Assembly (NCBI GenBank): GCA_964408775.1
Contig: CAYPAP010000001.1
Coordinates: 225,839-289,838, forward strand
Reading direction: 5' to 3'
Origin: an uncultured Gammaproteobacteria bacterium
GTDB lineage: Bacteria > Patescibacteriota > Patescibacteriia > Patescibacteriales > UBA12465
DNA length: 64,000 nt
Shown piece after piece: positions 4,481 through 51,638 of this stretch (positions within the stretch are counted from its first letter, which is position 1; every line of letters begins with the position of its first letter). Under the pieces are notes generated by a model that was not told the DNA's origin, did not search any database, and saw only the letters and a list, made by a program, of their open reading frames with translations. The position numbers and the translations under genes were made by a program.

Positions 4481-5245
4481 ATGAAGATTATCTCCTGGAA
4501 TGTTAATGGAATAAGAGCCGTCCTGAAGAAAGGGTTTTTGGATTTTATCGAAAAAGAACAGCCTGATATTCTGGCTCTTCAAGAAATAAAAATATCATTA
4601 GCTAAGAAAGACTTAGAAAAATTTGATTTTGCTGGATATACCGAATTTTGGAATTCAGCCGACAGACCTGGCTATAGCGGAACATTAATATTATATAAGG
4701 AGGGTCTAAAAGTTTTGAACGAAAAAAATGGACTGGATATAAAAAAATTTGATATTGAAGGACGAGTTCAAACCATAGAACTAAAAAATTTTTACTTCGT
4801 AAACACTTACTTTCCTAACTCTAATCACGAATTAAGTCGCTTAGGCTATAAATTGGAATTTAACCAAGAATTAGAAAAATATTTAAAAAAATTAGAAAAA
4901 AATAAGCCTGTAATTTTGACTGGAGACCTAAACGTTGCTCACCAAGAAATAGATTTGGCTCGACCCAAAGAAAATATTGGAAATCCCGGCTTTACTTATG
5001 AAGAAAGAAACTGGATGACTGGATTTTTAAACAATGGTTTCATTGATACTTTTAGATATTTAAATCCTCAGAAAATAAAATACTCCTGGTGGAGTTTTCG
5101 TTCGGCGGCTAGAGTTAGAAATATTGGCTGGAGAATTGATTATTTTTGTATTTCTAAAAAATTAATTAAAAAGGTAAAGAGAGCCGATATTTTAGACCAG
5201 GTTACTGGCTCAGATCACGCCCCAATAGTCTTAGAGATTAACTAA
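4481..5245 (+). CDS. xth: exodeoxyribonuclease III (AP endonuclease)
   Basis: MKIISWNVNGIRA, LALQEIK, GDLNVAH and SDHAPI motifs of the ExoIII/EEP family. Confidence 0.9.
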   Translation: MKIISWNVNGIRAVLKKGFLDFIEKEQPDILALQEIKISLAKKDLEKFDFAGYTEFWNSADRPGYSGTLILYKEGLKVLNEKNGLDIKKFDIEGRVQTIELKNFYFVNTYFPNSNHELSRLGYKLEFNQELEKYLKKLEKNKPVILTGDLNVAHQEIDLARPKENIGNPGFTYEERNWMTGFLNNGFIDTFRYLNPQKIKYSWWSFRSAARVRNIGWRIDYFCISKKLIKKVKRADILDQVTGSDHAPIVLEIN

Positions 5246-5333
5246 GATCCCCTTCCTGCATTAGTTCTATCAAGTCATTAACAGGAACAACAACAAAAAT
5301 AACTTTAAAAAAATTATAAATAAAATAAAAGAT

Positions 5334-6446
5334 ATGAAAAATAAATCACAAATATTGGAGGGTTCTCGGGCTATTGCTCTAACTGTTAAAAATATTGAGC
5401 CAGCTGTTATTTCAGCTTACCCTATTACCCCACAAACACATATCGTGGAAGACCTAGCCAAATTTAAAGCTGATGGCCAGGCTAAATATGAATATGTTCG
5501 ATCCGAGAGTGAATTTGCAGCCGCTTCTATTGTTTTAGGGGCTTCGGCTAAGGGCGTGCGAGCCTATAGTGCTACCAGCTCTCAGGGATTATTATTAATG
5601 ACCGAGGTTTTATACAATATTTCTGGCATGCGTCTACCAGTAGTAATGACTCTGGCTAATAGGGCTGTTTCTGCTCCCATAAATATTTGGAATGATCACA
5701 GTGATGCCATGGCCGTACGTGACGCTGGATGGATAATGTTTTTTGCTGAAAATAATCAAGAAGCTGTTTGGCAACATTTATTGGCTTTTAAGATTGCCGA
5801 AAAAATGGCGCTACCGGCCATGGTTAATGTTGATGGCTTTATATTGACTCATTGTTATGAGCCGGTTTACGTTCCCGACAAAAAAACTATTAAAAAATTT
5901 CTGCCTACCTACAAGCCAACTAAGGGAACATTTTTAGACTCTAAAAATCCTTTTACCATGGGAGCCTTTATGACACCGGAGCATTATCAAGAAACCAGAA
6001 AAAAATTATCAGCTGATTTTGTGACCACTATTTCGGAAATCAAAAAAGAATACCAACTATTACAGAAGACTATGGGTATTAAAAAGGAAAAAAATACTAC
6101 TGATAATGGTCTATTAGAATATACTGGATCTAAAAATTCCAAAAAAATAATAATTGCTATGGGGTCGGTTATTGGAACTATAAAATCAGCCCTAGCTAGA
6201 GAAAAAAACATTGGAATTTTGAAAATAAAGTCATACCGTCCTTTTCCAGAAAAGGAAATTTATGATATAATTAAAAATGCTAGAGAAATTACAGTAGTAG
6301 AAAAAGCTATTAGCCCTGGAAATCATAGTCCATTATTTATAGACGTAAAAGCAATAGCTTCTGACAAACAAAAAGTTACTAGCTTTGTTAGCGGACTGGG
6401 AGGAAGAGACATTACCGAGGAAGAAATAAGAAAAATAATGAAATAA
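5334..6446 (+). CDS. porA: pyruvate:ferredoxin oxidoreductase alpha subunit
   Basis: G..AIA.....E..VISAYPITPQT..VE and SESEFAAAS..LGAS..G.RAY.ATSSQG match the POR alpha pattern. Confidence 0.85.
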   Translation: MKNKSQILEGSRAIALTVKNIEPAVISAYPITPQTHIVEDLAKFKADGQAKYEYVRSESEFAAASIVLGASAKGVRAYSATSSQGLLLMTEVLYNISGMRLPVVMTLANRAVSAPINIWNDHSDAMAVRDAGWIMFFAENNQEAVWQHLLAFKIAEKMALPAMVNVDGFILTHCYEPVYVPDKKTIKKFLPTYKPTKGTFLDSKNPFTMGAFMTPEHYQETRKKLSADFVTTISEIKKEYQLLQKTMGIKKEKNTTDNGLLEYTGSKNSKKIIIAMGSVIGTIKSALAREKNIGILKIKSYRPFPEKEIYDIIKNAREITVVEKAISPGNHSPLFIDVKAIASDKQKVTSFVSGLGGRDITEEEIRKIMK

Positions 6447-6456
6447 TTATAAATTT

Positions 6457-7317
6457 ATGTTAAATAAGAAAAGTTGGTTTATTTTAATATTTTTATTTTT
6501 CCTATTTGTTTTTTCACCGACGCTAAAAACCAAGGAAGCCGGAGCAACCAACTTTATTCCTCAAGTTACTATCCCTGGCTCTAACTTTCAGGCCGGAACT
6601 TCAACCAAAATCGAGGATAGTACAGCCTCAATTGGAATATATATTAAATCTATTTATAATTATCTTTTAGGGATTGTTGGAATAGTGGCTGCTATTGTTT
6701 TAATGTTAGCTGGAGTCATTTGGTTAACCGCCGGAGGAAGCCCTGACAAGGTTAGTCAAGCAAAAAATCTAATAGCAGGCAGTCTCACTGGTTTGGTTTT
6801 AGTCCTGGTTTCTTATGTGATACTTAGGACTATAAATCCTTATTTGGTAGATTTTAGAGACACAATAATACCAAGAATAGAACCGTCTGAAGATATTGTT
6901 TTTTGTGTTAAGTACAACGAAGGAGAAATGCCAGGAGAGTTAAAAGATGACGGCACAATTATTATTCTGAGAACACAGGCAGATATAGATAAAAATGAAA
7001 AAATAACAAAGGCCGGTGGCAGAATTGAAGACACCGCCTCTCAATGCAAGGAAGACGAAGTCTGTTCTAAAGTTAAATACGAATACCCAAATAATATTTT
7101 TGAATGCACAAAAAAAGGAGATCTAAAGTGCTGCCAATATGAAAAATATAGCACGATAGGAATAACCTGCAAAACAATAACTAATGGAGAATCGTGTCCG
7201 GATCCAAAAGAAAGCTATCCTGATATTAAATTAAAATATATATACGAAGGGGAAAAGTGTGACCCCGCCTACAATGATAGCGGAAGAAATCCTTGCGTCC
7301 CTGGAGGAAAACAATAA
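6457..7317 (+). CDS. Cys-rich secreted protein with a pilin-like two-TM module (TrbC/VirB2-type 'T4SS pilin-like', tentative)
   Basis: Signal peptide. Module IYIKSIYNYLLGIVGIVAAIVLMLAGVIWLTAGGSPDKVSQAKNLIAGSLTGLVLVLVSYVILRTINPYLV is paralogous to the module in ORF 8159-9571. The C-terminal domain is Cys-rich. The family name is from memory and needs an HMM check. Confidence 0.6.
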   Translation: MLNKKSWFILIFLFFLFVFSPTLKTKEAGATNFIPQVTIPGSNFQAGTSTKIEDSTASIGIYIKSIYNYLLGIVGIVAAIVLMLAGVIWLTAGGSPDKVSQAKNLIAGSLTGLVLVLVSYVILRTINPYLVDFRDTIIPRIEPSEDIVFCVKYNEGEMPGELKDDGTIIILRTQADIDKNEKITKAGGRIEDTASQCKEDEVCSKVKYEYPNNIFECTKKGDLKCCQYEKYSTIGITCKTITNGESCPDPKESYPDIKLKYIYEGEKCDPAYNDSGRNPCVPGGKQ

Positions 7318-33894: not shown

Positions 33895-35829
33895 TTACTT
33901 TTCCTCAACCTCTCCCTCAACAACATTATCATCCGAGTTTTTTGACTCTTTGTCATCGGATTTACTCGAAGCCCCTTCTTCTGAACTTGCTTCTGGACCA
34001 GCCTGAGTTGTATCACCCGGAGTAGGTCCCTGATTTTGATACATCGCTGCGCCAATCTTTTGAGCAATATCATTTAGTTCTTCCATTTTTTTCTTCATGT
34101 CATCATACTGATCACCGTCTTTTATTTTCTTTAATTCCTCTAATTTAGCTTCTAATTCTTTTTTATCCTCTTCCTTCATTTTTTCACCAGACTCTTTTAA
34201 TAATTTTTCTGTAGTGAAAACAACGGCATCAGCTTGATTTTTAATTTCAATGTTTTCTTTTTTCTTTTTATCCTCTTCAGCATGAATTTCAGCTTCTTTT
34301 TGCATTTTTTCAATCTCTTCTTTACTTAAACCAGAAGAAGATGTGATGGTAATTTTCTGCTCTTTATTAGTAGCCTTATCCTTAGCGGTAACATTTAAAA
34401 TACCGTTAGCATCAATGTCGAAAATAACCTCAACCTGAGGGACACCTCGAGGAGCTGGCGGGATACCGTCCAAAATAAAGCGCCCTAAAGTCTTGTTGTC
34501 AGAAGCCATAGGTCTTTCTCCTTGTAAAACATGAATTTCCACGCTGGGCTGATTATCAGCAGCTGTTGAAAAAATTTGTGATTTAGAATGAGGTATGGTA
34601 GTATTTCTATCAATTAAAGGAGTAGCAACTCCACCCAATGTTTCTATACCCAAAGTTAAAGGGGTAACATCTAAAAGCAACACATCTTTAACGTCCCCCT
34701 GCAAAACTCCAGCCTGGACAGCAGCACCAATAGCCACTACTTCATCTGGGTTAACACTCAAGTTTGGCTCTTTGCCAAAAAATTCCTTAACCTTTTTTTG
34801 CACCAACGGCATTCTAGTCATTCCACCAACTAAAATAACTTCTTCGATCTCAGAGGTGCTTAAACCAGCATCTGATAGGGCTTTCTTACAGGGCTCTATA
34901 GTTCTGTCAACTAAGTCGGAAATTAATTCCTCTAATTTTGACCTAGTTAATTTCATTACTAAATGCTTAGGACCATTTTCATCAGTACTAATAAACGGCT
35001 GATTAATTTCTGTTTCCATAGAAGTGGATAATTCTATTTTTGCTTTTTCAGCTGATTCTTTAATTCTCTGCAAGGCTAAAGAATCTTTAGATAAATCTAT
35101 CCCCTGGTCTTTTTTAAATTCATTAATGATCCAGGAAATAATAACCTGGTCAAAATCTTCTCCTCCTAAATGAGTATCACCATTGGTAGCCTTTACCTCT
35201 ACTGTGTCTTCTGAAATATCCAAAATAGAGACGTCAAAAGTTCCCCCTCCTAAATCATAGACAGCTACTTGCTGACCTTTTTTCTTATCAAAGCCATAAG
35301 CTAGGGCAGCGGCAGTTGGTTCATTTATAATTCTTTTGACATCCAATCCTGCGATTTTCCCAGCGTCCTTAGTCGCCTGTCTTTGAGCATCATCAAAATA
35401 GGCTGGAACAGTGATAATAGCCTCAGTTATTTTTTCTCCAATCTTATTTTCAGCATCAGCTTTTAATTTCGCCAAAACCATAGCCGAAATTTCCTGTGGA
35501 GTGTATTCTTTGTCCCCCATTTTAACTTTAACACCCTCGCCTGACTGAATCATTTTATAAGAGACCATCTCTAGATCTTTTTTAACTTCAGCGTCCTCAA
35601 ACTTACGACCGATCAAACGCTTAACTGAGTGAATAGTGTTTTCTGGGTTAGTAACAGCCTGCCTTTTAGCTGACTGACCAACTAGACGCTCACCACTCTT
35701 AGAAATAGCCACTATAGAGGGGGTTGTGCGATTACCTTCAGCATTTTCTAAAATCTTAGGTTGACCACCCTCAATAATAGCCATGGCTGAATTAGTTGTT
35801 CCCAAGTCGATTCCTAATATTTTTCCCAT
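33895..35829 (-). CDS. dnaK: chaperone DnaK (Hsp70)
   Basis: [17 protein letters not shown] and [10 protein letters not shown] signatures across the full length. Confidence 0.97.
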
Positions 35830-35925
35830 ATCTTTTGTTTTTGAAATTTTCCGAAATTTTTAAGATTTAATTAATACAGAAAATTTCAATATTTTTATAA
35901 TTAATTTTAATAAAATTGTCCAAGT

Positions 35926-35950
35926 CAGAAACACAGTGAATGTGTTTCTG
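35926..35950. other. perfect 10-bp hairpin between hsp20 and dnaK
   Basis: CAGAAACACA-GTGAA-TGTGTTTCTG. A T-run follows only on the plus strand (TTTT). On the coding (minus) strand there is no U-run, so this may be an attenuator or processing site rather than a full terminator. Confidence 0.35.
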
Positions 35951-35962
35951 TTTTAGAAAATC

Positions 35963-36397
35963 TTATTTTTTGTTAGTTTTAATTTTAATTGATTTTGGTT
36001 TAGATTCTGGTGCTTTAGGAATGGATATTTTTAAAATTCCTCCATCTGCTAAAGCCGAAGCATGGTCTCCTAAAACCCTGGCTGGAAGAGGAATAGAGCG
36101 ATAAAAACCACCTCGGCGAATCTCTTTGCGATAATAATTTTTTTCTTCTACCTCAGTTTTTTTCTCACCCTCACCCTTAATACACAAAACATCATTTTCA
36201 ATAGAAATATCAATTTTTTCTGGATCTATACCGGCTAATTGAGTTTCCACGATCACGTTATCGTCATCTTCGTACATATCAATAGCTGGCATAAAACCAT
36301 TGTTGCTACGAACAGCTGGTAAAAACTCGGACATCATTTTGTCCATTTCATCAAAATAATTGTCCCCTAAAAATGGGCTCCATTTTACAAGTGACAT
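35963..36397 (-). CDS. small heat-shock protein (Hsp20/alpha-crystallin)
   Basis: Alpha-crystallin domain pattern (PAIDMYEDDDNVIVETQLAGIDPEKIDISIENDVLCIKGE...F.RSIPLP...GILKI.IPK). Confidence 0.9.
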   Translation of the reverse strand: MSLVKWSPFLGDNYFDEMDKMMSEFLPAVRSNNGFMPAIDMYEDDDNVIVETQLAGIDPEKIDISIENDVLCIKGEGEKKTEVEEKNYYRKEIRRGGFYRSIPLPARVLGDHASALADGGILKISIPKAPESKPKSIKIKTNKK

Positions 36398-36468
36398 ATC
36401 TTTAAATATCTTTTATCAAAACAACTTTTCAGTTGTAGATGAAAAAAGATTAAAAATTAATAAAACAT

Positions 36469-36984
36469 TTACTCGTCTTTATTTTTATTTTTTGTAGATA
36501 AAGCTACCTTGGCGGGAATAATTACTTTATCATTTAAAATATACCCGGTTCGAATCTCTGACACAACATCATTGCCATCACCCTCTACTGCTTCCATGGT
36601 GTTATAATCAAATTTTTCTCCAACAGTCTTTATTTCTCTTAAACCATTAGCGGTAAAAATATCCTGAAACTGTTTAATAACATGTCTGACCCCCTCTACC
36701 CAAGGGCTTTTTTCTTCCTCCTTATTTAATGTCTTAATAGACATTTTTAAATTTTCATAAACTGGTAAAATTTCTAGAAGAAACCCTTTTAAAGAATATT
36801 TTAAGAATTCTGATTTTTCATTAACACTATTTTTCAACAAATTTTGATAATCTGCTAAAGCTCTTTTATATTTACCGTCTAATTCTGAGATCTCTTGTTT
36901 TAAATTCTCAATGAGTTCCTGGTTATCACCATGGTTGTTTTCATCTTTTTTTGTCTTTTTGAAATCTTTTTTTTCTTTACTCAT
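36469..36984 (-). CDS. grpE: nucleotide exchange factor GrpE
   Basis: The coiled-coil N-terminus with RALADYQN and the C-terminal beta domain (G..L.DKVIIPAKV) are both consistent with GrpE. The gene sits in the hrcA/dnaK operon context. Confidence 0.85.
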   Translation of the reverse strand: MSKEKKDFKKTKKDENNHGDNQELIENLKQEISELDGKYKRALADYQNLLKNSVNEKSEFLKYSLKGFLLEILPVYENLKMSIKTLNKEEEKSPWVEGVRHVIKQFQDIFTANGLREIKTVGEKFDYNTMEAVEGDGNDVVSEIRTGYILNDKVIIPAKVALSTKNKNKDE

Positions 36985-36989
36985 AAATT

Positions 36990-37682
36990 TTAATTATTCT
37001 CTAATTTATTTTTTAAAAATCTGATTAATCCTAAGTTTTTTTCATAATCGCTTCTTAGTGGCCCCAATATTCCTACCACTGAACTCTGATTTTTATTACT
37101 ATATTTTAATAAAGTTGTACTCAAAAAATTTCCAAAAGGATTATTTTCACCGATAAAAATACTTTCTCCAAAATCTAAGTCATCAAAAATTTCAGCAATT
37201 ATTTCCTCCATTCTATCTATTATAATAGATACATCAAAAATTATTTCACTAGAACGAAACTCCGGCTGAATAAATAGATTAGAAATACCGGTATAATATA
37301 GGTCATTTTTATGGAAAGCCCAGAAAACAGCATTTTTAGATATCTCGGCCATGGCTTTGGCAGATTTTTTAAAACCTTCTTCTGATTGAGAGAAAGACTT
37401 GTCTAGAGCACTAAAAGAATGTTTTTTCTCTTTTTGATCAATAATGTAGTTTTTTACGTAATAATCATAGGCCTTAGAAGTCGGAACTCGTCCAGCTGAG
37501 GTGTGGGGCTGATAAATATAGCCCCTATCCTCTAATTCAGCCATCTCATTTCTGGCAGTAGCAGAAGAAATATCAAGCTTGTATTTCTCAACTAAAAAGC
37601 CAGAACTAACCGGCTGAGCCGTTTTTATGTGTTCCTTAATTAACGTTATTAAAATATGTTCTTGTCTAGCGCTAATATCCAT
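36990..37682 (-). CDS. hrcA: heat-inducible transcription repressor HrcA (compact, 230 aa)
   Basis: N-terminal winged HTH (RQEHILITLIKEHIKTAQPVSSGFLVEKY...SSATARNEMAELEDRGYIYQPHTSAGRVPT). A CIRCE operator lies directly upstream. Confidence 0.8.
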   Translation of the reverse strand: MDISARQEHILITLIKEHIKTAQPVSSGFLVEKYKLDISSATARNEMAELEDRGYIYQPHTSAGRVPTSKAYDYYVKNYIIDQKEKKHSFSALDKSFSQSEEGFKKSAKAMAEISKNAVFWAFHKNDLYYTGISNLFIQPEFRSSEIIFDVSIIIDRMEEIIAEIFDDLDFGESIFIGENNPFGNFLSTTLLKYSNKNQSSVVGILGPLRSDYEKNLGLIRFLKNKLENN

Positions 37683-37722
37683 AAAATTTAAGTTGTTATA
37701 AAAACAACCTTATTATATAAAA

Positions 37723-37749
37723 TTAGCACTCTTATGTCAAGAGTGCTAA
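37723..37749. promoter_or_regulatory. CIRCE operator (HrcA binding site)
   Basis: TTAGCACTC-TTATGTCAA-GAGTGCTAA is an exact match to the TTAGCACTC-N9-GAGTGCTAA consensus. It lies 41 nt upstream of the hrcA start. Confidence 0.85.
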
Positions 37750-37824
37750 AAAGTGATAGTTTTAGTCTATTCTATAAGCAGGGCGCTCCCTATACTATAT
37801 ACCGTAGATTGGCGAATTACAGTG

Positions 37825-38544
37825 CTACTCCCTAAATTTACAGCCAGGAATTTTTTCATTAACTCTAAGAACCGCCTCTTTAATCTCTAAATCTAAAAAT
37901 GGTTTTTTATCTTTAAAATCATTATTAACCAAATCCGTATCTGATTTAAATTTTTGTAAAAACCATTTTTTAACCCCCATTAATTCCTCCGCCATTACAA
38001 AAATATCACTTATCTCATGTAAGCCCGGAACTAAGGTTGTTCTCAACTCGTAATCAACTCTATCTTCTAATAAAAAATCAATTGATTCTCTTATTTTTTT
38101 TATATCTGTTTTAACACTAACAATTTCCTCGTACTTATCCAGGGGTCCCTTAACATCCATAGCAATATAATCCAATAATTTATTTTCAACCAAGTCTTTA
38201 ACCATTTCTGGGTTTGTTCCGTTGGTGTCTAATTTAACCTTAAATCCAAGATCTTTAACTTTTATTATAAAGTCCTTTAGGTCTGGCTGTAGGGTCGGCT
38301 CCCCCCCAGAAATAACAACTCCATCGATCTTGCCGTGACGACTTTCTAAAAAAAGAAAAAGGTCATCCTCTGGAATCAAAGGATGACTTTCTTCATATTT
38401 ACCCTCGCCTTCACCATTGGCCAAGACAAGCATGGGGTTGTAACAAAAATGGCAACGGAAATTACAAGCTTTAGTAAAAATAATTGTTGCAATATTACCT
38501 GGAAAATCAATCATGCTAATTTTCTCCCATCCTCCTATTACCAT
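37825..38544 (-). CDS. nrdG: anaerobic ribonucleotide reductase activating protein (radical SAM)
   Basis: IGGWEKISMIDFPGNIATIIFTKACNFRCHFCYNP (CxxxCxxC). The start is taken at the ATG at 38544. The track start at 38631 overlaps the upstream minigene. Confidence 0.85.
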   Translation of the reverse strand: MVIGGWEKISMIDFPGNIATIIFTKACNFRCHFCYNPMLVLANGEGEGKYEESHPLIPEDDLFLFLESRHGKIDGVVISGGEPTLQPDLKDFIIKVKDLGFKVKLDTNGTNPEMVKDLVENKLLDYIAMDVKGPLDKYEEIVSVKTDIKKIRESIDFLLEDRVDYELRTTLVPGLHEISDIFVMAEELMGVKKWFLQKFKSDTDLVNNDFKDKKPFLDLEIKEAVLRVNEKIPGCKFRE

Positions 38545-38584
38545 TTTTAAAAACCAAAAACTAACGGAAATAAAAAATTTAGTA

Positions 38585-38740
38585 TTATTCGCTAATCTTT
38601 TCGGTGTTAATTTTATAAGTTTTGCGGTCATTGTACTCAGCTACCTTTCCCTTGTTGTAGCATTTAGTAGGGGTAAGCCAGCCAACCACTCGGCTATAAA
38701 CAATGCACTCTGTTCTCTTGTTAGTTTGTATTGGACTCAT
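38585..38740 (-). CDS. stand-alone NrdD C-terminal glycyl-radical segment (51-codon minigene)
   Basis: Below the track cutoff. ATG at 38740 gives MSPIQTNKRTECIVYSRVVGWLTPTKCYNKGKVAEYNDRKTYKINTEKISE. This matches the usual NrdD C-terminal pattern (SR-x-x-G-Y/W-x-x-P...N-x-GK..E..DRK). The large nrdD ORF lacks this region. Confidence 0.6.
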   Translation of the reverse strand: MSPIQTNKRTECIVYSRVVGWLTPTKCYNKGKVAEYNDRKTYKINTEKISE

Positions 38741-38789
38741 ATTCTTTTCGTCAGGATATATTTAAAAATATAGCGCCTGTTTTTTAATT

Positions 38790-38818
38790 ATTATAATATA
38801 TAAATTTATAAAAATCAA
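38790..38818 (-). promoter_or_regulatory. candidate sigma70-type promoter in the nrdD / glycyl-radical-minigene spacer
   Basis: The minus strand reads TTGATT-N17-TATAAT. The AT-rich context makes a chance occurrence plausible. Confidence 0.3.
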
Positions 38819-38827
38819 TTTGAAAAA

Positions 38828-40891
38828 CTATAAAGAACTATCGCTGACACCCTGGTTAGCCTCTCTGGCTGAGAGTACCATATGCTCTCTTTCTTCGTCG
38901 CATTTAGGGCAATATTTGTGCTCGCCCGCCAAATAACCATGAATAGGGCAAACAGAGAAGGTTGGTGTTATAGTAAAGTATGGTAAATGATAATTTTCTA
39001 CAATAGTTTTTACTAATTTTTTAGTAATTTCAGGGTCGCTAATTCTTTCTCCTAAAAATCCATGCAAAACTGTTCCTCCGGTGTATTTTGTTTGTAACTC
39101 ATCCTGAAGATCTAGGGCTGTAAAAATATCATCTGTGAAGCCAACTGGTAAATGAGTAGAATTAGTATAATAAGGGTTGGCACCATCCTCTCTAACTAAT
39201 TTATCGTTAGCGCAAATAATTTCTGGGTAAGTTTCTTTATCTTTTTTAGCGAAACGATAGGTGCAACCTTCAGCTGGAGTAGCTTCGAGATTATATAAAT
39301 CTCCAGTTTCTTCTTGAAATCCAGAAATATGGTCCCTCATGAAATCCATTATTTCTAAAGCAAACTTATAGCCTCGAGCGCTAGAGATATCCTCTCCTAA
39401 TAGATTTAAAGCGGCTTCATTCATTCCGTTTAAACCAATGGTATTAAAATGATTCTTCCAATAAGAACCAAACTGGTCTTTTATTGTCTCTAGATAAAAC
39501 TTAGAATAGGGATAAAGCCCTTCTTCAGTAAATTTTTCTACTACTTTTCTTTTTATTTCTAAGCTCTCCTTAGCCAGATTCATTAATTTTAATAATCTTT
39601 CCTTAAATTCTTTTTCATCTTTAGATAAATAACCCAGTCTAGCCAAATTCATAGTGACTACCCCCAGGCTACCGGTTAAAGGATTAGCACCAAATAAACC
39701 GCCACCTCTTTTTCGCAATTCACGGTTATCTAGTCTTAGGCGACAACACATACTTCTGGCATCATCCCTATCCATGTCTGAATTTACAAAGTTAGAGAAA
39801 TAAGGAATACCATATTTAGAAGTCATCTCCCACATTGGCCTCAAACTCTCTCTATCCCAATCAAATTCTTTGTCGATATTATATGTTGGTATAGGGAAGG
39901 CAAAAACCCTTCCAGTAGCATCGCCCTCTATCATAACCTCAGAAAAAGCCTTGTTGAACAAATCCATTTCCATCTGAAAATCGCCATATTTTTCATCCAT
40001 AATTTTTCCCCCAATAATAACATTTTCTTGAGACATTAGTTTTGAGGGGGTAACATCTAGGGTAACGTTGGTAAATGGTGTTTGAAAGCCAACTCGAGTT
40101 GGAACATTTACATTAAAAACAAATTCTTGAAGAGCTTGTTTAATTTCCTTGTAAGACAAGTCATCGTATCGAATAAACGGAGCTAAATAGGTGTCAAAAT
40201 TAGAAAAAGCCTGAGCTCCAGCTGCTTCTCCTTGCATGGTGTAGAAAAAATTTACAATTTGCCCTAAAGCACTTCTAAAATGCTTTGGTGGTTTGCTCTG
40301 AATTTTAGTATCAACGCCACCGAAGCCTTTGAGTAATAAGTCCTTTAAATCCCAACCACAACAATAAGGGGCTAATAAACCTAGGTCATGAATATGAAAA
40401 TCTCCTTCGACATGAGCTTTTCTGATATTTTCTGGATATAGTTTGTTTAACCAGTACTTAGCTGAAATTGCTGAAGCAATATAATTATTTAAGCCTTGGA
40501 CTGAAAAACTCATATTACTATTTTCTTTTAGTCTCCAGTCAGCCTTACCCAAATAATCTTCCATTAACTTTTCCTCGTTACTTTGGTTTATCTCCCTAAC
40601 CTGTCTCCTTTGGTCTCTGTATAAAATATATGTCTTCGCTACTTTAATTAATTTGTTTTCAATTAAAGTTTCCTCCACCACATCCTGGACCTCCTCCACA
40701 GCGGGAATCGTTTTATGATGGAATTTTTTGCTAAGCTTATCTAAAACTTGATCGCTCAATTTTTTGGCTAACTCTTCATTTTCTTCGTCAACTGCCTTCA
40801 TGGCGCCCAATATAGCCTTAAATATTTTCTCAATTTTAAAATCGGCAATATCACCGGAGCGTTTCAAAATTTTAGTTATGCTTTCTGACAT
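38828..40891 (-). CDS. nrdD: anaerobic ribonucleoside-triphosphate reductase (class III), large fragment lacking the glycyl-radical tail
   Basis: N-terminal ATP cone, NrdD core, and a C-terminal Zn-site region CPIHGYLAGEHKYCPKCDEE. The ORF stops (TAG 38830-38828) before any RxxGY/W motif. Confidence 0.9.
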   Translation of the reverse strand: MSESITKILKRSGDIADFKIEKIFKAILGAMKAVDEENEELAKKLSDQVLDKLSKKFHHKTIPAVEEVQDVVEETLIENKLIKVAKTYILYRDQRRQVREINQSNEEKLMEDYLGKADWRLKENSNMSFSVQGLNNYIASAISAKYWLNKLYPENIRKAHVEGDFHIHDLGLLAPYCCGWDLKDLLLKGFGGVDTKIQSKPPKHFRSALGQIVNFFYTMQGEAAGAQAFSNFDTYLAPFIRYDDLSYKEIKQALQEFVFNVNVPTRVGFQTPFTNVTLDVTPSKLMSQENVIIGGKIMDEKYGDFQMEMDLFNKAFSEVMIEGDATGRVFAFPIPTYNIDKEFDWDRESLRPMWEMTSKYGIPYFSNFVNSDMDRDDARSMCCRLRLDNRELRKRGGGLFGANPLTGSLGVVTMNLARLGYLSKDEKEFKERLLKLMNLAKESLEIKRKVVEKFTEEGLYPYSKFYLETIKDQFGSYWKNHFNTIGLNGMNEAALNLLGEDISSARGYKFALEIMDFMRDHISGFQEETGDLYNLEATPAEGCTYRFAKKDKETYPEIICANDKLVREDGANPYYTNSTHLPVGFTDDIFTALDLQDELQTKYTGGTVLHGFLGERISDPEITKKLVKTIVENYHLPYFTITPTFSVCPIHGYLAGEHKYCPKCDEEREHMVLSAREANQGVSDSSL

Positions 40892-40913
40892 AGATTTAAA
40901 TTTTAATTATTAA

Positions 40914-41381
40914 TTATTTTTTGTTTTTCTTGTTTTTTAATAATTTTTCTAACTCTTCAGCAAATTCTTCTACACATTCAAATGATTGATAAACTGAGGC
41001 GTATCTAATATAGGCAACTTTGTCTATTTTTTTTAAATTTTTCATAACGATATCTCCTACATCCTTAGAATCAATTTCATTTTTATTTAAAACCTGCAAA
41101 TCTCTTTCTATGCAATAAATAAGCTTCTTGAATTTTTCCTCGTCAACGTCCCTTTTTTCTAAAGCCTTTTTAAGGCCGCTAGATAATTTGTCTCTATTAT
41201 AATTTTCTCGACGACCATCTCTTTTTAATATTACTAAATCTAAAAGCTCCATCTCCTCGTGAGTAGAAAAGCGAAACTCACATTTTAAACACTCCCGACG
41301 ACGTCTAATTAAAAGTCCGTCCCCAGACATTCTAGAGTCAACTACCTTAGTGTCTTCAAAGTTGCAAACTGGGCATTTCAT
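40914..41381 (-). CDS. nrdR: transcriptional repressor NrdR
   Basis: MKCPVCNFEDTKVVDSR...CLKC zinc ribbon followed by an ATP cone. Confidence 0.9.
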   Translation of the reverse strand: MKCPVCNFEDTKVVDSRMSGDGLLIRRRRECLKCEFRFSTHEEMELLDLVILKRDGRRENYNRDKLSSGLKKALEKRDVDEEKFKKLIYCIERDLQVLNKNEIDSKDVGDIVMKNLKKIDKVAYIRYASVYQSFECVEEFAEELEKLLKNKKNKK

Positions 41382-41414
41382 TGGCTTTTTTAATAATTTT
41401 TAAACTTAGTCTAA

Positions 41415-41463
41415 ACACAATATATAGTATAGTAAAATATTATTTAACCACTATATGTTGTTA
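41415..41463. promoter_or_regulatory. two candidate NrdR boxes upstream of nrdR
   Basis: ACACAATATATAGTAT (41415-41430) and CCACTATATGTTGTTA (41448-41463) compared with the remembered consensus acaCwAtATaTwGtgt. The boxes are offset by 33 bp. Confidence 0.5.
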
Positions 41464-41641
41464 TTATGAATTATAGCAAAATTTTGGATTTCTGCCAAAT
41501 AAGCAAAAATTGGCTAAAATTAAATAAAATATAAACTAAAATTAAGAAAAGGGTAAATAAAAAAAATTATCCTGTGGATAACTTTTTAAAAAACGTAAAA
41601 CGAATAGGCTGATCTTACAAATTTAAATTTTAAAACTACTT

Positions 41642-42367
41642 TTATCCGACTAAATTACTGTAATAATCACTAACATCCTCTAAATCGTCCAGCTCTTCAG
41701 TAAACTTAGCTATCTTTTCTTGTTGCTCGGCTGAAATTTCTTGTTTTTCCTTTGGCAAATACTCAATTTCGGCTGATTCTATGTTCAGGCCCTTAGATTC
41801 TATATTATTTTTTATTTTTTGTAGATCCTCTACCCTGGTGTAGATTAAAACGAGCTCTTCTTCGGATTTAAAATCATCTATTCCCGCATCTATCAATTCT
41901 AATTGAAAATCATCTATGTTGATATTTTTGTTTTTTAGCTCTTCTTTGGTGATCACCACTACTCCTTTTTGTTCAAAGTTCCACATTACCGATCCCAAGC
42001 TTCCACCGCTCTTTGACAAGGCATGTCGAACCATAGAAGCGCTTCTATTTTTATTATCTGTTAAACATTTAATAATAAACTGGATATTATTTGGTAAAAT
42101 TCCCTCATAATAAAGTTCTTCTACCGCATCACCCGCTAGCTCTCCCGTTCCTCGCTTAATTGCCCTCTCGATGTTATCTTTAGGCATATTAACGGCCCTG
42201 GCTTTATCCATAGCCATGCGCAAAGAAGGGTTGGCGTTAGGATCGCCACCTTTTTCTCGAGCTGCTATGGTAATAATATTTCCTAGCTTAGTAAAGATTG
42301 CTCCTCTTTTTGAATCTGTTACAGCCTTCGCTCTTTTAATTGTTGCCCATTTAGAATGTCCAGACAT
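41642..42367 (-). CDS. yebC: YebC/PmpR-family DNA-binding regulator
   Basis: MSGHSKWATIKRAKAVTDSKRGAIFTKL is the family signature. Confidence 0.9.
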   Translation of the reverse strand: MSGHSKWATIKRAKAVTDSKRGAIFTKLGNIITIAAREKGGDPNANPSLRMAMDKARAVNMPKDNIERAIKRGTGELAGDAVEELYYEGILPNNIQFIIKCLTDNKNRSASMVRHALSKSGGSLGSVMWNFEQKGVVVITKEELKNKNINIDDFQLELIDAGIDDFKSEEELVLIYTRVEDLQKIKNNIESKGLNIESAEIEYLPKEKQEISAEQQEKIAKFTEELDDLEDVSDYYSNLVG

Positions 42368-42373
42368 AAAATT

Positions 42374-42418
42374 GAGATTATTGGGATCATTGGGATCCTT
42401 AAGATCTTAAAAATCTTA
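42374..42418. repeat. five degenerate tandem 9-mers containing three GATC sites
   Basis: GAGATTATT GGGATCATT GGGATCCTT AAGATCTTA AAAATCTTA, located directly upstream of the yebC start. Confidence 0.6.
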
Positions 42419-42451
42419 TTCCTATTGCTTTATATAAAGACTAATTTTTAA

Positions 42452-43372
42452 TTAATTTCCGGGGACTATTAAATCAAACTTCCCCTTACTGCCATAGGCC
42501 TTAGGACCATAATCTTGGCAATATTTTTTGATATTGTTTTTAAAATAGGGCGGCTTATTTTTTTGTATTTTGCCAACCAGACAATAAGTTAAACATAAAA
42601 CAAAAGCAAAATCAACCTTAGATGTTAACTTTATTTGCCAACGACTCTGAGGGTCCCCAAAATACATATTTTTTTCATTTCCCAAAGTAATTACTAGCTC
42701 TTTTTTATCCCTAATAACAAACTTAGCATGCCGAGCATGGCCAAAGCTAAAGGCTCTTAAGGATAATTTAGGACCAAATAACTCGCTTTTTTTAATATCT
42801 ATCATTGGGGTTATGGCGATAAAATCATCAGGCAAGACAAAGGAATAGGAGTTATAATCCTTAAAATTTGTTTTTAATTTTAAGCTTTTAATAAACTTTA
42901 AAATGCTTTTGGGGTTTTCTCCGGTGGCAGATAAAATCATCCCTAAGTAAGTAGAGATGTTATAAGTATAGGGCTCGGAAATTTTAGGATAAACAATAAC
43001 CTTATCGGCTATTTTACTAGCGCTTGAGTTAGGTGAGCAGGTCAATAAAGTTGTTTTTAACTTATACTTCTGAGCTAATTTAATTTCCCAAATAGAATCT
43101 TTTTCACCCGAAGCTGAAATAACCACAACTTCTTTTATTATTTTTTTATTAATCAAATCCTTATAACTTTCTATTATTTTTTTAAAAGTACTTTCATCAG
43201 CAATAATAGCCTTACGTCCAGAAAATAAAATATGGCCGGTGTTGTAAGCATTCCCGCTGCCAACCACAATAGGAAAATTGAAATTATTTAACTTTAATTT
43301 AGGTAATTTGTTTTTGCTAAAAAACTCTAGTGCATTAACAACTCCCTGATCCAAACTTATTATATTTTTCAT
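42452..43372 (-). CDS. SIS-domain-like sugar-phosphate isomerase/binding protein (tentative)
   Basis: VVVISASGEKDSIWEIKLAQKYKLKTTLLTC resembles the SIS motif (S-x-SG-x-T...). The assignment is weak. Confidence 0.35.
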   Translation of the reverse strand: MKNIISLDQGVVNALEFFSKNKLPKLKLNNFNFPIVVGSGNAYNTGHILFSGRKAIIADESTFKKIIESYKDLINKKIIKEVVVISASGEKDSIWEIKLAQKYKLKTTLLTCSPNSSASKIADKVIVYPKISEPYTYNISTYLGMILSATGENPKSILKFIKSLKLKTNFKDYNSYSFVLPDDFIAITPMIDIKKSELFGPKLSLRAFSFGHARHAKFVIRDKKELVITLGNEKNMYFGDPQSRWQIKLTSKVDFAFVLCLTYCLVGKIQKNKPPYFKNNIKKYCQDYGPKAYGSKGKFDLIVPGN

Positions 43373-49525: not shown

Positions 49526-50626
49526 TTATAAATCATACTCTTTTATTAAATCATTTAGTTTAGTTTTATGTATCGTTTTTAATTCAGCATCTTTTTCAAC
49601 TAGCTCTATATATTCATTGAAGAATTCCTTAGGATTTGAGATTAAACGAAGATAATACTTTAATGTATATAGCAATCCATTAACAATTAACTGACATCCG
49701 TGATTTTCTTTAATTTCAAAAATTAACTCATCAATCGCCTCTCGGTCGCTTTCCTGCGTTCCAATATGTGAAAGAATATAATATCTCTCTGGATTGAACC
49801 TGGCAATTTTCTCATAAGCAATTCTAGCTATATTTATATCAATCATCTTATCCAGCTTTACCTCAACTGCTTCAAATATTCTATCGCCTTTAATTATTTC
49901 AATATCACCAGAGCTTTTTGAGGTTCTGTCTGATGCAGTATGGCTACCGAGAGGGGCAAGGGTACAATCTTTATATCTTCCAACTTCTTTAATTAGGGCC
50001 TTATAAATAGCATAAAAAGCTAAAACCGGAAGCTTTGACCCACCGTGAGTGCCATATTTATGCGTAAAATGTTGTTCTAAAATTACAGTTACCACTGAGA
50101 TTAAAACTTCATCACCGTTATCCATTTTTTTGATTTCAACGTGATTTTTCTTTTTAAATAAAATGGCACTATTTAATACCAATCTTAAAAGATTTTCTGT
50201 TAATACATTATTATTTTGAATTGCATCTACAATTCTTAAAAATGCCTCTTTCATTCCTGCGCCAGAAATCTCACCCTTATAGTCCATTGTATACGGGTAA
50301 GGCTGTTCTAAGCTTCTAGTAAGCCATCCACTTTCCGCCATAGACAACAGCCCTAATTCTTTTAGTGTTGGCGTAATGTACTTAGTGTCAACAGTTCTTG
50401 CAGAAAAACCATTTTTCATTTTACCTTGAAAGTATCGGATATCCTGTTTTGGTTCTAAGAGTTTATGTACCATCAGTGTTACAAGAACGGTATAAACGCC
50501 TTTATTTCTGTCCATATTGTCTATAATTTTTTGCAAAAAAATCATAGTTTTTTTTGGTATATTATCTATATCAGATATATCGAATGATTTTTTGTAGACT
50601 TCTAATAGCGTCTCTTTGTGGTTCAT
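49526..50626 (-). CDS. candidate type II restriction endonuclease (PD-(D/E)xK)
   Basis: It lies 4 nt downstream of the C5-MTase gene. SGDIEIIKGDRIFEAVEVKLD fits a D...E-x-K nuclease core. No named family recognised. Confidence 0.55.
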   Translation of the reverse strand: MNHKETLLEVYKKSFDISDIDNIPKKTMIFLQKIIDNMDRNKGVYTVLVTLMVHKLLEPKQDIRYFQGKMKNGFSARTVDTKYITPTLKELGLLSMAESGWLTRSLEQPYPYTMDYKGEISGAGMKEAFLRIVDAIQNNNVLTENLLRLVLNSAILFKKKNHVEIKKMDNGDEVLISVVTVILEQHFTHKYGTHGGSKLPVLAFYAIYKALIKEVGRYKDCTLAPLGSHTASDRTSKSSGDIEIIKGDRIFEAVEVKLDKMIDINIARIAYEKIARFNPERYYILSHIGTQESDREAIDELIFEIKENHGCQLIVNGLLYTLKYYLRLISNPKEFFNEYIELVEKDAELKTIHKTKLNDLIKEYDL

Positions 50627-50630
50627 ATAA

Positions 50631-51638
50631 TTATAATAGTTGTGAGATTATTTGCTCTCCAACTTTTTTTATCATTGGAATTGCTACAGCATTGCCAATT
50701 TGGTTATAACAAGAGCCATTTTTACTTATTTTTTTAAAATTATCTGGAAAACCTTGTAATCTGTAGCATTCTGTCAATGTTAATTTTCTAACTTTTTTAC
50801 CGTCATAAATCCAAAATCTGCCAGATGTTTCTTGTGACGGTATTGTCGGATGCGTTCCATTAATATAATATATTCTGTTTGGTTGCTTGTGAACCCTTGA
50901 TAAATGCTCAGTATTGGGTCTAGCTCCATTAATTCTTATAGATTTATTTCTATAACCACAAAAAATTAAGCCAGAAATTTGTTTTTTCCATTTATCTTTA
51001 GGAATTATTGTATATTCGCTTGGTTTTAAATATTCAAAATCAACCCCTGTCTGCATAATGTCTTTAATAGTCTTATTCTCAATTTTTTCTATTTTTGAAA
51101 AATCAAACTTTTTTTTCTTATTTCCTACAATAATAACCCTTTCTCTGTTCTGTGATAAACCAAAATCTTTTGCATTTAATATATGCCACTCTGTTTTATA
51201 TCCTAATTCCTCAAGATGACGTATGATAGTTTTTAAAGTTTTACCGCTGTTATGGTCTTTAAGATGTTTTACATTTTCAAGGAATACAACGCTTGGGCTT
51301 TTTGCTTTTATTATTTCAAGTATATTAAAAAATAAAGTTCCCCTTGTATCTTCAAACCCTTTCATTCTTCCTGATATGCTAAATGGCTGACAAGGAAAAC
51401 CTCCACACAATATATCGTGTTTTGGTATACTACTTGGCTTAATTTTAGTTATATCTCCTTTTGGATACTCCCCGAAGTTTGCTTCATAAGTTTTCGCACA
51501 CTCTACGTCGATTTCAGATGAAAATACACATTTACCGTTAAGCTCTTGGAGTGCAATATGAAATCCCCCTATGCCAGCGAAGAGGTCTATAAAAGTAAAT
51601 TTTTTATTTTTATCATTTTTCTTTTTTATCGGTGTCAT
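50631..51638 (-). CDS. DNA (cytosine-5)-methyltransferase
   Basis: Motifs I FIDLFAGIGGF, IV GGFPCQPFS, VI FLENVKHL, VIII QNRERV and X GNAVAIPM, in canonical order. Confidence 0.9.
   Translation of the reverse strand: MTPIKKKNDKNKKFTFIDLFAGIGGFHIALQELNGKCVFSSEIDVECAKTYEANFGEYPKGDITKIKPSSIPKHDILCGGFPCQPFSISGRMKGFEDTRGTLFFNILEIIKAKSPSVVFLENVKHLKDHNSGKTLKTIIRHLEELGYKTEWHILNAKDFGLSQNRERVIIVGNKKKKFDFSKIEKIENKTIKDIMQTGVDFEYLKPSEYTIIPKDKWKKQISGLIFCGYRNKSIRINGARPNTEHLSRVHKQPNRIYYINGTHPTIPSQETSGRFWIYDGKKVRKLTLTECYRLQGFPDNFKKISKNGSCYNQIGNAVAIPMIKKVGEQIISQLL

Follow-up and report, generated by a model that had tools for sequence, protein, structure and literature searches.

Can the radical-bearing end of a class III ribonucleotide reductase (RNR), an oxygen-sensitive enzyme that supplies the precursors of DNA, be encoded by a gene of its own? 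Glycyl radical enzymes have been described with the radical glycine at the C terminus of the catalytic chain. The question is raised by a stretch of 64,000 nucleotides (nt) of the contig CAYPAP010000001.1, placed by GTDB in the Patescibacteriota and referred to here as the window, in which the nrdD gene stops short of the radical site. On the minus strand the order of genes is nrdR, a large nrdD open reading frame (ORF), a spacer of 87 nt, an ORF of 51 codons (the minigene) and nrdG. A preliminary description of the locus had offered three explanations, namely, a fresh pseudogenization, an assembly error, or a functional two-piece enzyme with the radical-bearing peptide supplied in trans. Comparative evidence removed the first two of these and favored the third. 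We put at roughly 80% the probability that the split of nrdD is natural and stable, giving two genes that are translated independently of each other and whose products would form a working two-piece class III RNR, with the radical subunit acting in trans.

The reading frames were found as initially described. The large ORF ends in CPKCDEEREHMVLSAREANQGVSDSSL at a TAG stop (38830-38828), and the minigene, which lies in the same frame beyond two stops, encodes the 51-residue product MSPIQTNKRTECIVYSRVVGWLTPTKCYNKGKVAEYNDRKTYKINTEKISE. The signature RxxG[YWF] was present in the minigene, where the radical Gly20 is specified by the GGC codon at 38683-38681, and absent from the large ORF, whose product continues past the Zn-ribbon (CPIH...CPKCDEE) for 20 variable residues and then ends. 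Comparison with family profiles, which had been proposed as a check, gave complementary coverage. Of the 562 positions of PF13597 (NRDD), the large ORF matched 1-532 (E 4e-188) and the minigene 530-562 (E 8.7e-7; 28.4 bits against a cutoff of 26.2); of the 581 positions of TIGR02487, the two matched 1-549 and 549-580, respectively. The large ORF scored 1051 bits with NF006126 (cutoff 548) and 538.9 bits with TIGR02487 (cutoff 326), and the nrdG product scored 198.7 bits with TIGR02495 (NrdG2; cutoff 131). The minigene product therefore corresponds to the C terminus of NrdD. An NrdD is expected to carry RxxG[YFW] on the barrel polypeptide; here the large ORF stops at position 532 of the 562 in PF13597, and the motif is on the 51-residue ORF. 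The Zn-ribbon, expected after the final barrel strand and ahead of the radical loop, was found in the large subunit as CPIH-x9-CPKC, for which metal binding is predicted.

The motif SCCR or MCCR ahead of the finger loop marks the NrdDh subclass, and the MCCR variant defines the group NrdDh4 (PMC4493059). The window sequence reads DARSMCCRLRLD, and M381, C382, C383, and R384 were invariant across 70 large subunits; assigned by motif only, the window NrdD is a member of the NrdDh subclass, group NrdDh4. When the minigene was scanned against Pfam and NCBIfam at E <= 0.1, only NrdD models were returned, with no match to the radical domain of pyruvate formate-lyase (PFL) or GrcA, and there was no dedicated family model for the small ORF among the NCBIfam matches. 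A phmmer search against PDB sequences gave nothing at E <= 1 with this very short query. In public annotation the large ORFs are named as complete NrdD, and the small ORFs appear as "hypothetical protein" or, at 42 to 51 amino acids (aa), as "anaerobic ribonucleoside-triphosphate reductase." The best reading of these sequences is a class III RNR with a predicted activity of glycyl-radical-dependent reduction of nucleoside triphosphates (NTPs).

To see how widely the split is conserved, 80 loci were taken from species-representative genomes and the Zn-ribbon and radical loop were located in each; 79 were assessable. The same split was present in 67 of these 79 related GTDB loci, the other 12 being one-piece, and it is thus not unique to the window. 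In the split loci the large ORF always terminated past the variable tail, and the new ORF always started with ATG (GTG in two), 4 to 15 codons before (K/Q)R(Q/T)xC-E/I-V-Y-S-R-V-V-G. The distance from stop to start ranged from 0 to 411 nt, being greater where nrdG intervenes, and all three frame relationships occurred. The genes were always on one strand, in the order large-small-nrdG in 56 loci and large-nrdG-small in 11, the latter order being seen in Halanaerobium saccharolyticum and Orenia metallireducens. Among 68 split loci, 67 had nrdG as a same-strand neighbor and one had a flank too short to tell; the CxxH...CxxC pattern of the Zn-ribbon was found in all 68.

The split loci came from many lineages of Patescibacteria, labeled Falkow-, Uhr-, Buchanan-, Kuenen-, and Magasanikbacteria, Parcubacteria, and Microgenomates, from two bins labeled DPANN archaea, and from the Halanaerobiales. 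RefSeq WP_ records of the small protein exist for the isolates Halanaerobium congolense, H. saccharolyticum, H. salsuginis, H. kushneri, Orenia marismortui, and O. metallireducens; these proteins have 42 to 48 aa, yet they are named "anaerobic ribonucleoside-triphosphate reductase." When the minigene served as query, 53 proteins were obtained, every one of 40 to 69 aa, down to 54% identity, and the best 120 homologues of the large ORF had approximately 675 to 700 aa, except for two with inteins. When a minigene profile was run against 1.84 billion representative proteins, 613 matches were obtained at E <= 1e-10. The best 150 of the 613 are clusters at 50% identity, all of 47 to 115 aa, giving at least 150 stand-alone clusters; 122 of these 150 begin with Met, and 122 have a Cys ahead of the motif. 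One candidate for membership in the minigene clusters (P0183, 396 aa) was rejected as an unrelated, kinase-like protein.

One locus (L059, 1064-3244) carried a one-piece NrdD reading CPKCDEDDMSPQKLERQKCEVYSRVVGY, in which an MSP start of the minigene type is kept inside the chain, behind the Zn-ribbon. From its sequence this looks like a natural secondary re-fusion of the two genes, which would mean that the split and one-piece states interconvert. A search with the C terminus of this re-fused protein returned only fragments of <400 aa and no full-length one-piece relative. A neighbor-joining tree (280 aa) had too little resolution to count fission events or to tell a single origin. A Cys in the tail was invariant in 68/68 split loci, compared with 5/12 one-piece relatives. 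It may be a Zn ligand, but the published ligand set of Thermotoga maritima NrdD lies upstream of this Cys. Separately, a Cys pair (CxC, CC, or CxxC) was observed at the extreme C-terminal end of 30 of 120 close large-subunit relatives (termini of P0003-P0044 and L001-L080). Within the 68 split loci, such a pair was on the large subunit in 8 and at the end of the small peptide in 10, never on both. The pair is reminiscent of the C-terminal cysteines that act as a redox shuttle in class I and class II RNRs; it is missing from the window large subunit (…SDSSL).

The minigene carried its own signals of translation. Across the 53 sequences, Met1, Ser2, and Pro3 were conserved at >=90%, and R9, E11, C12, Y15, R17, V18, G20, P24, N29, K32, E35, and R39 were invariant. 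The dN/dS values between the window and three relatives (L003, L004, and L006) were 0.04 to 0.09, which are approximate, as synonymous sites were saturated (dS > 1); these comparisons indicate strong purifying selection on the minigene. In the lineages that rely on Shine-Dalgarno (SD) sequences, which include all Halanaerobiales-type loci and several Patescibacteria, a canonical (A)GGAGG was located 6 to 9 nt upstream of the minigene, and an SD-like motif preceded it in 29/68 loci. In the window (33895-43372), no SD sequence was found before nrdD-small, nor before dnaK, hsp20, grpE, hrcA, nrdD-large, nrdR, the start of the long nrdG ORF, a 241-aa ORF, or a 306-aa ORF; the homology-supported nrdG start at 38544 had none either. 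The gene leaders of the window are A/T-rich, and the genome seems to initiate translation without SD pairing. Because the other inspected genes lack an SD sequence too, its absence before the minigene is the norm for this genome. The minigene's own ATG, the conserved MSP N terminus, and the SD sequence where the lineage uses one are signals that point to independent translation.

The promoter-like element TTGATT-N17-TATAAT that had been reported in the spacer exists at 38818-38790, with 10/12 matches to consensus, and is a putative promoter. Since the region is AT-rich, with 21 promoter-like sites found in 4 kb against 14.6 expected, this match weighs little. The TATAAT was common to the closest relatives, the -35 element not being present in all of them, and its conservation hints at separate expression of the minigene. 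Otherwise the spacers of the closest relatives (6 to 17% G+C) were barely alignable and had no conserved sequence or structure. An Rfam scan of 38300-41700 detected no intron or ribozyme and gave chance-level matches only, such as a RAGATH-1 hammerhead (E 2.9) within the minigene.

Copies of the minigene were also found in viral contigs. A scan of IMG/VR with the minigene profile returned 24 contigs, of which one (L103 = L127, L129) has the arrangement nrdR-large-small-nrdG and probably derives from a cell. The remaining 23 (L081-L102, L104 = L105-L126, L128) are phage-like; they contain the minigene, but no large subunit, nrdG, or nrdR was seen in the 10 kb flanking it on each side, or anywhere on those contigs that were shorter than this. 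The invariant large-subunit motifs APYCCGW and VGFQTPF, checked over the whole contig, occurred on none of the 23. Terminase large subunits were identified on L119 and L120 and a tail fiber gene on L109, and an Amidase_2 or Peptidase_M23 endolysin gene lay directly downstream of the minigene on L085, L093, L095, L097, and L102. Every phage copy was of the form ...C-x-[VI]-[YF]-S-R-V-V-G-[WY], most reading ECIVYSRVVGW as in the window clade, and 20 of the 23 orphan copies were intact with the invariant residues kept, in at least ten different phage contexts. One of the intact orphan copies (P0144) was indexed in 38 assembly-collection blocks. Unlike these orphans, phage NrdDh genes are mostly one-piece, and among GenBank phages there was no isolated phage with a close copy of the orphan peptide. 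As a side observation, the P0144 copy is surrounded by RtcB and T4_Y16D genes and by LAGLIDADG, HNH, and GIY-YIG endonuclease genes, and free-standing homing endonuclease genes (GIY-YIG SegE-like, LAGLIDADG, and HNH) around one phage orphan were noted at 1792-2388 of L081 and at 5104-7187 and 13336-13713 of L167. Homing endonuclease genes near an orphan minigene may account for the mobility of the minigene.

In the NrdD of T. maritima the final barrel strand is followed by the Zn-ribbon and this in turn by the C-terminal loop bearing Gly621, and this Zn-ribbon/C-terminal-loop region was proposed by the authors to be the meeting site of the activase (PMC4493059). By this architecture, the split is situated exactly at the junction of the Zn-ribbon and radical-loop domains. 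The large subunit alone and a plain concatenation of both products were modeled with AlphaFold, giving mean predicted local distance difference test (pLDDT) values of 69.9 and 76.2, respectively, and the top Foldseek matches of the models were class III RNR structures.

The reading of a two-piece enzyme builds directly on the split of the gene, its conservation, the purifying selection, the signals of independent translation, the operon linkage, and the orphan copies in phages; from these we infer that the two pieces would assemble, that NrdG would be the activator, and that the peptide would be exchanged. By homology, the small peptide would dock noncovalently, its loop entering the barrel to face the finger loop, like the covalent C terminus of T. 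maritima NrdD. NrdG would then take the hydrogen atom from Gly20, and the resulting complex would reduce NTPs. A separate carrier of 5 to 6 kDa could in principle be overproduced, activated off the enzyme, or replaced after cleavage by oxygen without remaking the 687-aa subunit, and phages with only the peptide would supply the large subunit of the host. The phage orphans are the strongest hint that the peptide is an exchangeable part, in parallel with T4 Y06I for PFL (PMC8683613). Only tentatively, and at somewhat less than even odds, the idea may be taken further to a radical cartridge that is free-standing, exchangeable, and consumed in use. The 5-kDa peptide, once armed by NrdG, would insert into the large subunit, and after its destruction by oxygen or radical loss a new one would take its place; Patescibacteria phages would encode the cartridge alone, often beside lysis genes, and so keep the anaerobic RNR of the host armed while infecting it.

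Several observations weigh against a two-piece enzyme with an exchangeable peptide. Both pieces are known from gene sequence alone. In the concatenated AlphaFold model, residues 644-709, which comprise the junction and the radical loop, had pLDDT values of <50. The phage contigs were read directly only for 10 kb per side, the remainder being checked for two motifs only. Not all orphans are intact, as the copies on L099 (~1433-1492), L100, and L101 (3012-3071) have an in-frame stop in the motif. These three came from different samples and share an identical 6-nt insertion, GTTTAA, which produces YSRVV*VGW (the asterisk denoting the stop); such copies are either disrupted or recoded.

Of the other explanations, a recent pseudogenization or a sequencing or assembly error, leaving a locus that yields no working NrdD, might be suspected from the two in-frame stops and the missing SD sequence ahead of the minigene in the window. 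However, an error is contradicted by the presence of the split in 67/79 related genomes from independent assemblies and in the Halanaerobium and Orenia isolates with RefSeq proteins. A fresh pseudogene is contradicted by dN/dS values of 0.04 to 0.09 at saturated synonymous sites, by the conserved start codon and N terminus, and by the ribosome-binding site found in SD-using lineages, the window genome being generally without SD sequences. This explanation is hardly credible. Equally hard to credit is that the parts are rejoined in one polypeptide through a small intron, readthrough, ribosomal bypass, or a frameshift. An intron or intein would entail ribozyme structure or intein motifs and a fixed frame or splice site, whereas spacer length and frame varied, the A/T-rich spacers contained no conserved element or Rfam intron, and an entire nrdG lay between the pieces in 11 loci. 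Its position there in Halanaerobium and Orenia excludes an intron or ribosomal bypass. Each minigene also has its own start, with an SD sequence where the lineage uses one, and orphan minigenes occur in phages. These findings outweigh the shared frame of the two ORFs in the window and the fact that introns and inteins are known to invade RNR genes (PMC3653736).

An alternative to be taken seriously for the cellular loci is a fixed heterodimer that arose by neutral gene fission, that is, a 1:1 complex acting as a one-piece NrdD would, with no role in exchange, repair, or dosage, the phage copies being hitchhiking fragments. The linker in which the break lies is extended in this clade and coincides with a domain junction, where a buried loop might keep the pieces attached to each other; in the operon the two genes are always neighbors, re-fusion happens (L059), and three phage copies are disrupted. 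What makes neutral fission the less likely reading overall is the set of 20 intact orphans, which keep all invariant residues in at least ten phage contexts and are hard to explain without a function in trans; the recurrence of the P0144 orphan and the hint of separate expression from the conserved spacer TATAAT point the same way. It is improbable, and much more so than neutral fission, that the small peptide is a regulator, decoy, or inhibitor of NrdD or NrdG, with the large subunit inactive or using another radical source. Manipulation of the host RNR might benefit a phage, but the peptide keeps every canonical residue of the radical loop and of the WNxGK...R segment, and the large subunit is without an alternative radical site, its barrel, SMCCR loop, Zn-ribbon, and NrdG partner all being intact and highly conserved.

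The proposed two-piece enzyme was compared with known systems. In the preliminary description, the minigene was likened to GrcA/YfiD, the stand-alone glycyl-radical protein that repairs PFL. As a mode of action the analogy stands and is strengthened by the phage orphans. Like the minigene product, the Escherichia coli protein GrcA/YfiD and the phage T4 protein Y06I are small stand-alone proteins with a glycyl radical loop, of which a phage-encoded version exists (PMC8683613); they act in trans with a large subunit that has no functional radical domain, and activation by the cognate radical S-adenosylmethionine (SAM) activase is presumed. As a family assignment the analogy does not hold. The minigene product is homologous to the NrdD C terminus (PF13597), has ~45 to 60 aa rather than ~127, and has its gene within the nrdD-nrdG operon. 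None of the large subunits adjacent to it in the 68 cellular split loci has a radical domain; for these subunits the peptide would be the sole, obligatory source of the radical glycine rather than a spare. The phage orphans may fit the notion of a spare part, working with a partner encoded by the host. Spare parts have been described for formate lyases only (PMC13450708). In the 2021 paper, only YfiD and Y06I were validated, and spare parts for other glycyl radical enzymes were merely considered possible (PMC8683613); whether they exist has been openly asked (PMC8683613; PMC13450708).

With the one-piece NrdDh of T. maritima (PDB 4COI, 4U3E), the window enzyme shares the ATP-cone and barrel, the (S/M)CCR motif, the Cys/His Zn-ribbon, the CEVYSRVVGY loop, and NrdG, but its chain is interrupted where the Zn-ribbon gives way to the radical loop. 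The linker here, between CDEE(I/M)GY... and ...KRQxC, is longer than that of T. maritima and holds the stop codon, the spacer, and the new start codon. Two adjacent genes likewise give rise to an active RNR catalytic subunit in NrdJa/NrdJb (class II; PMC9669993) and in NrdA-a/NrdA-b of phage Aeh1 (PMC3653736, PMC3045599). Those are other RNR classes with other split points, in which the radical-bearing element is not a separate mini-protein, and the Aeh1 split was caused by a homing endonuclease gene. The nrdD of T4, with I-TevII, and that of Clostridium phage c-st, with inteins, are also interrupted and have mobile endonucleases nearby. These phage genes are spliced back to one polypeptide, whereas the split nrdD showed no sign of splicing and nrdG may intervene. 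Inteins were also noted within the barrel of large subunits from split loci, as insertions in H. saccharolyticum (L079, 101-3418, 1105 aa) and in two Patescibacteria (P0022 and P0036, 1049 and 1079 aa); intein and LAGLIDADG Pfam domains were detected in P0036, and the other two were judged to be inteins by length and sequence only. No description of an NrdD with its radical domain as a separate gene product was found in the full-text open-access literature, and an earlier mention elsewhere is possible. A Tn7 preprint considered as a precedent was set aside, as it deals with Tn7 att sites. The small ORFs themselves are already in public databases under generic names.

The features of the operon are listed below. 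The presence of nrdR and nrdG and of NrdR-box-like sites, from which it had been argued that the locus is still in use, was confirmed. Compared with ACACWANATNTWGTGT, the box-like site at 41415-41430 has 1 mismatch and that at 41448-41463 has 3, the weaker one being a consensus match in AT-rich DNA; in the 64-kb window just two sites come as close as 1 mismatch to the consensus. A further NrdR-box-like site at 51405-51420 was rejected as a probable chance match, as it lies inside a DNA methyltransferase-like ORF. The promoter-like element before nrdR (41498-41470) reads TTGGCA-17-TATAAT, with 11/12 matches. The nrdG start at 38544 (MVIGGWEKISMIDFPG), 40 nt past the minigene stop, was set by aligning NrdG homologues; the longest reading frame for nrdG (start 38631; 37825-38631, 268 aa) begins within the minigene, at a start that homology does not support. 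An AGGAGG at the 38544 start was rejected as a ribosome-binding site, as it codes for Gly-Gly.

Features of the split nrd locus (positions are those of the 64-kb window)
Feature	Position	Strand	Description
nrdR	40914..41381	minus	155 aa; first gene of the operon; PF22811 Zn_ribbon_NrdR, E 1.9e-18; ATP-cone, E 5e-18
nrdD-large	38828..40891	minus	687 aa; ATP-cone, alpha/beta barrel with SMCCR finger-loop motif, Zn-ribbon CPIH...CPKC; without glycyl-radical motif
Spacer	38741..38827	minus	87 nt, noncoding, 17% G+C; contains promoter-like TTGATT-N17-TATAAT
nrdD-small (minigene)	38585..38740	minus	51 codons; YSRVVG20W loop, then WNxGK...R segment, corresponding to the usual NrdD C terminus
nrdG	37825..38544	minus	Radical-SAM activase, 239 aa from the homology-supported start
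Terminator-like hairpin	37723..37749	minus	12-bp stem, then T-run; end of operon
Two NrdR-box-like sites	41415-41430 and 41448-41463	minus	33 bp apart, between promoter-like 41498-41470 and the nrdR start; putative function

Directly downstream of the nrd operon is a heat-shock cluster (33895-37682) with hrcA, grpE, a small gene resembling HSP20, and dnaK. Ahead of the cluster is a perfect TTGACA-17-TATAAT (37740-37712), which overlaps the nrd terminator hairpin. Elsewhere in the window (49526-51638), a 335-aa ORF with C5 DNA methyltransferase-like motifs (FAGIGG and GFPCQPFS) is adjacent to a 366-aa ORF, and the two are possibly a restriction-modification pair. In two relatives (L161, 526-1677; L165, 8-1159), an RVT_1 reverse transcriptase and a bAvd-like gene, which together resemble a diversity-generating retroelement, are located just upstream of the nrdR-nrdD operon.

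The family would give a natural RNR with the radical domain as a peptide of 45 to 60 residues, with the halophiles Halanaerobium and Orenia as cultured hosts. Access of the activase to a glycine buried in the barrel, loading of the radical loop off the enzyme, and repair of oxygen damage would become testable, and the peptide would be a minimal substrate for NrdG. If the cartridge idea is true, this would be the first case of a glycyl radical enzyme whose radical subunit is obligately separate and the first spare-part system beyond the formate lyases, and among viral auxiliary metabolic genes for nucleotide synthesis the phage gene would be the smallest known. Peptide-only phage copies would represent a new kind of auxiliary metabolic gene, and the split enzyme would bear on the supply of deoxynucleoside triphosphates in the ultra-small Patescibacteria.

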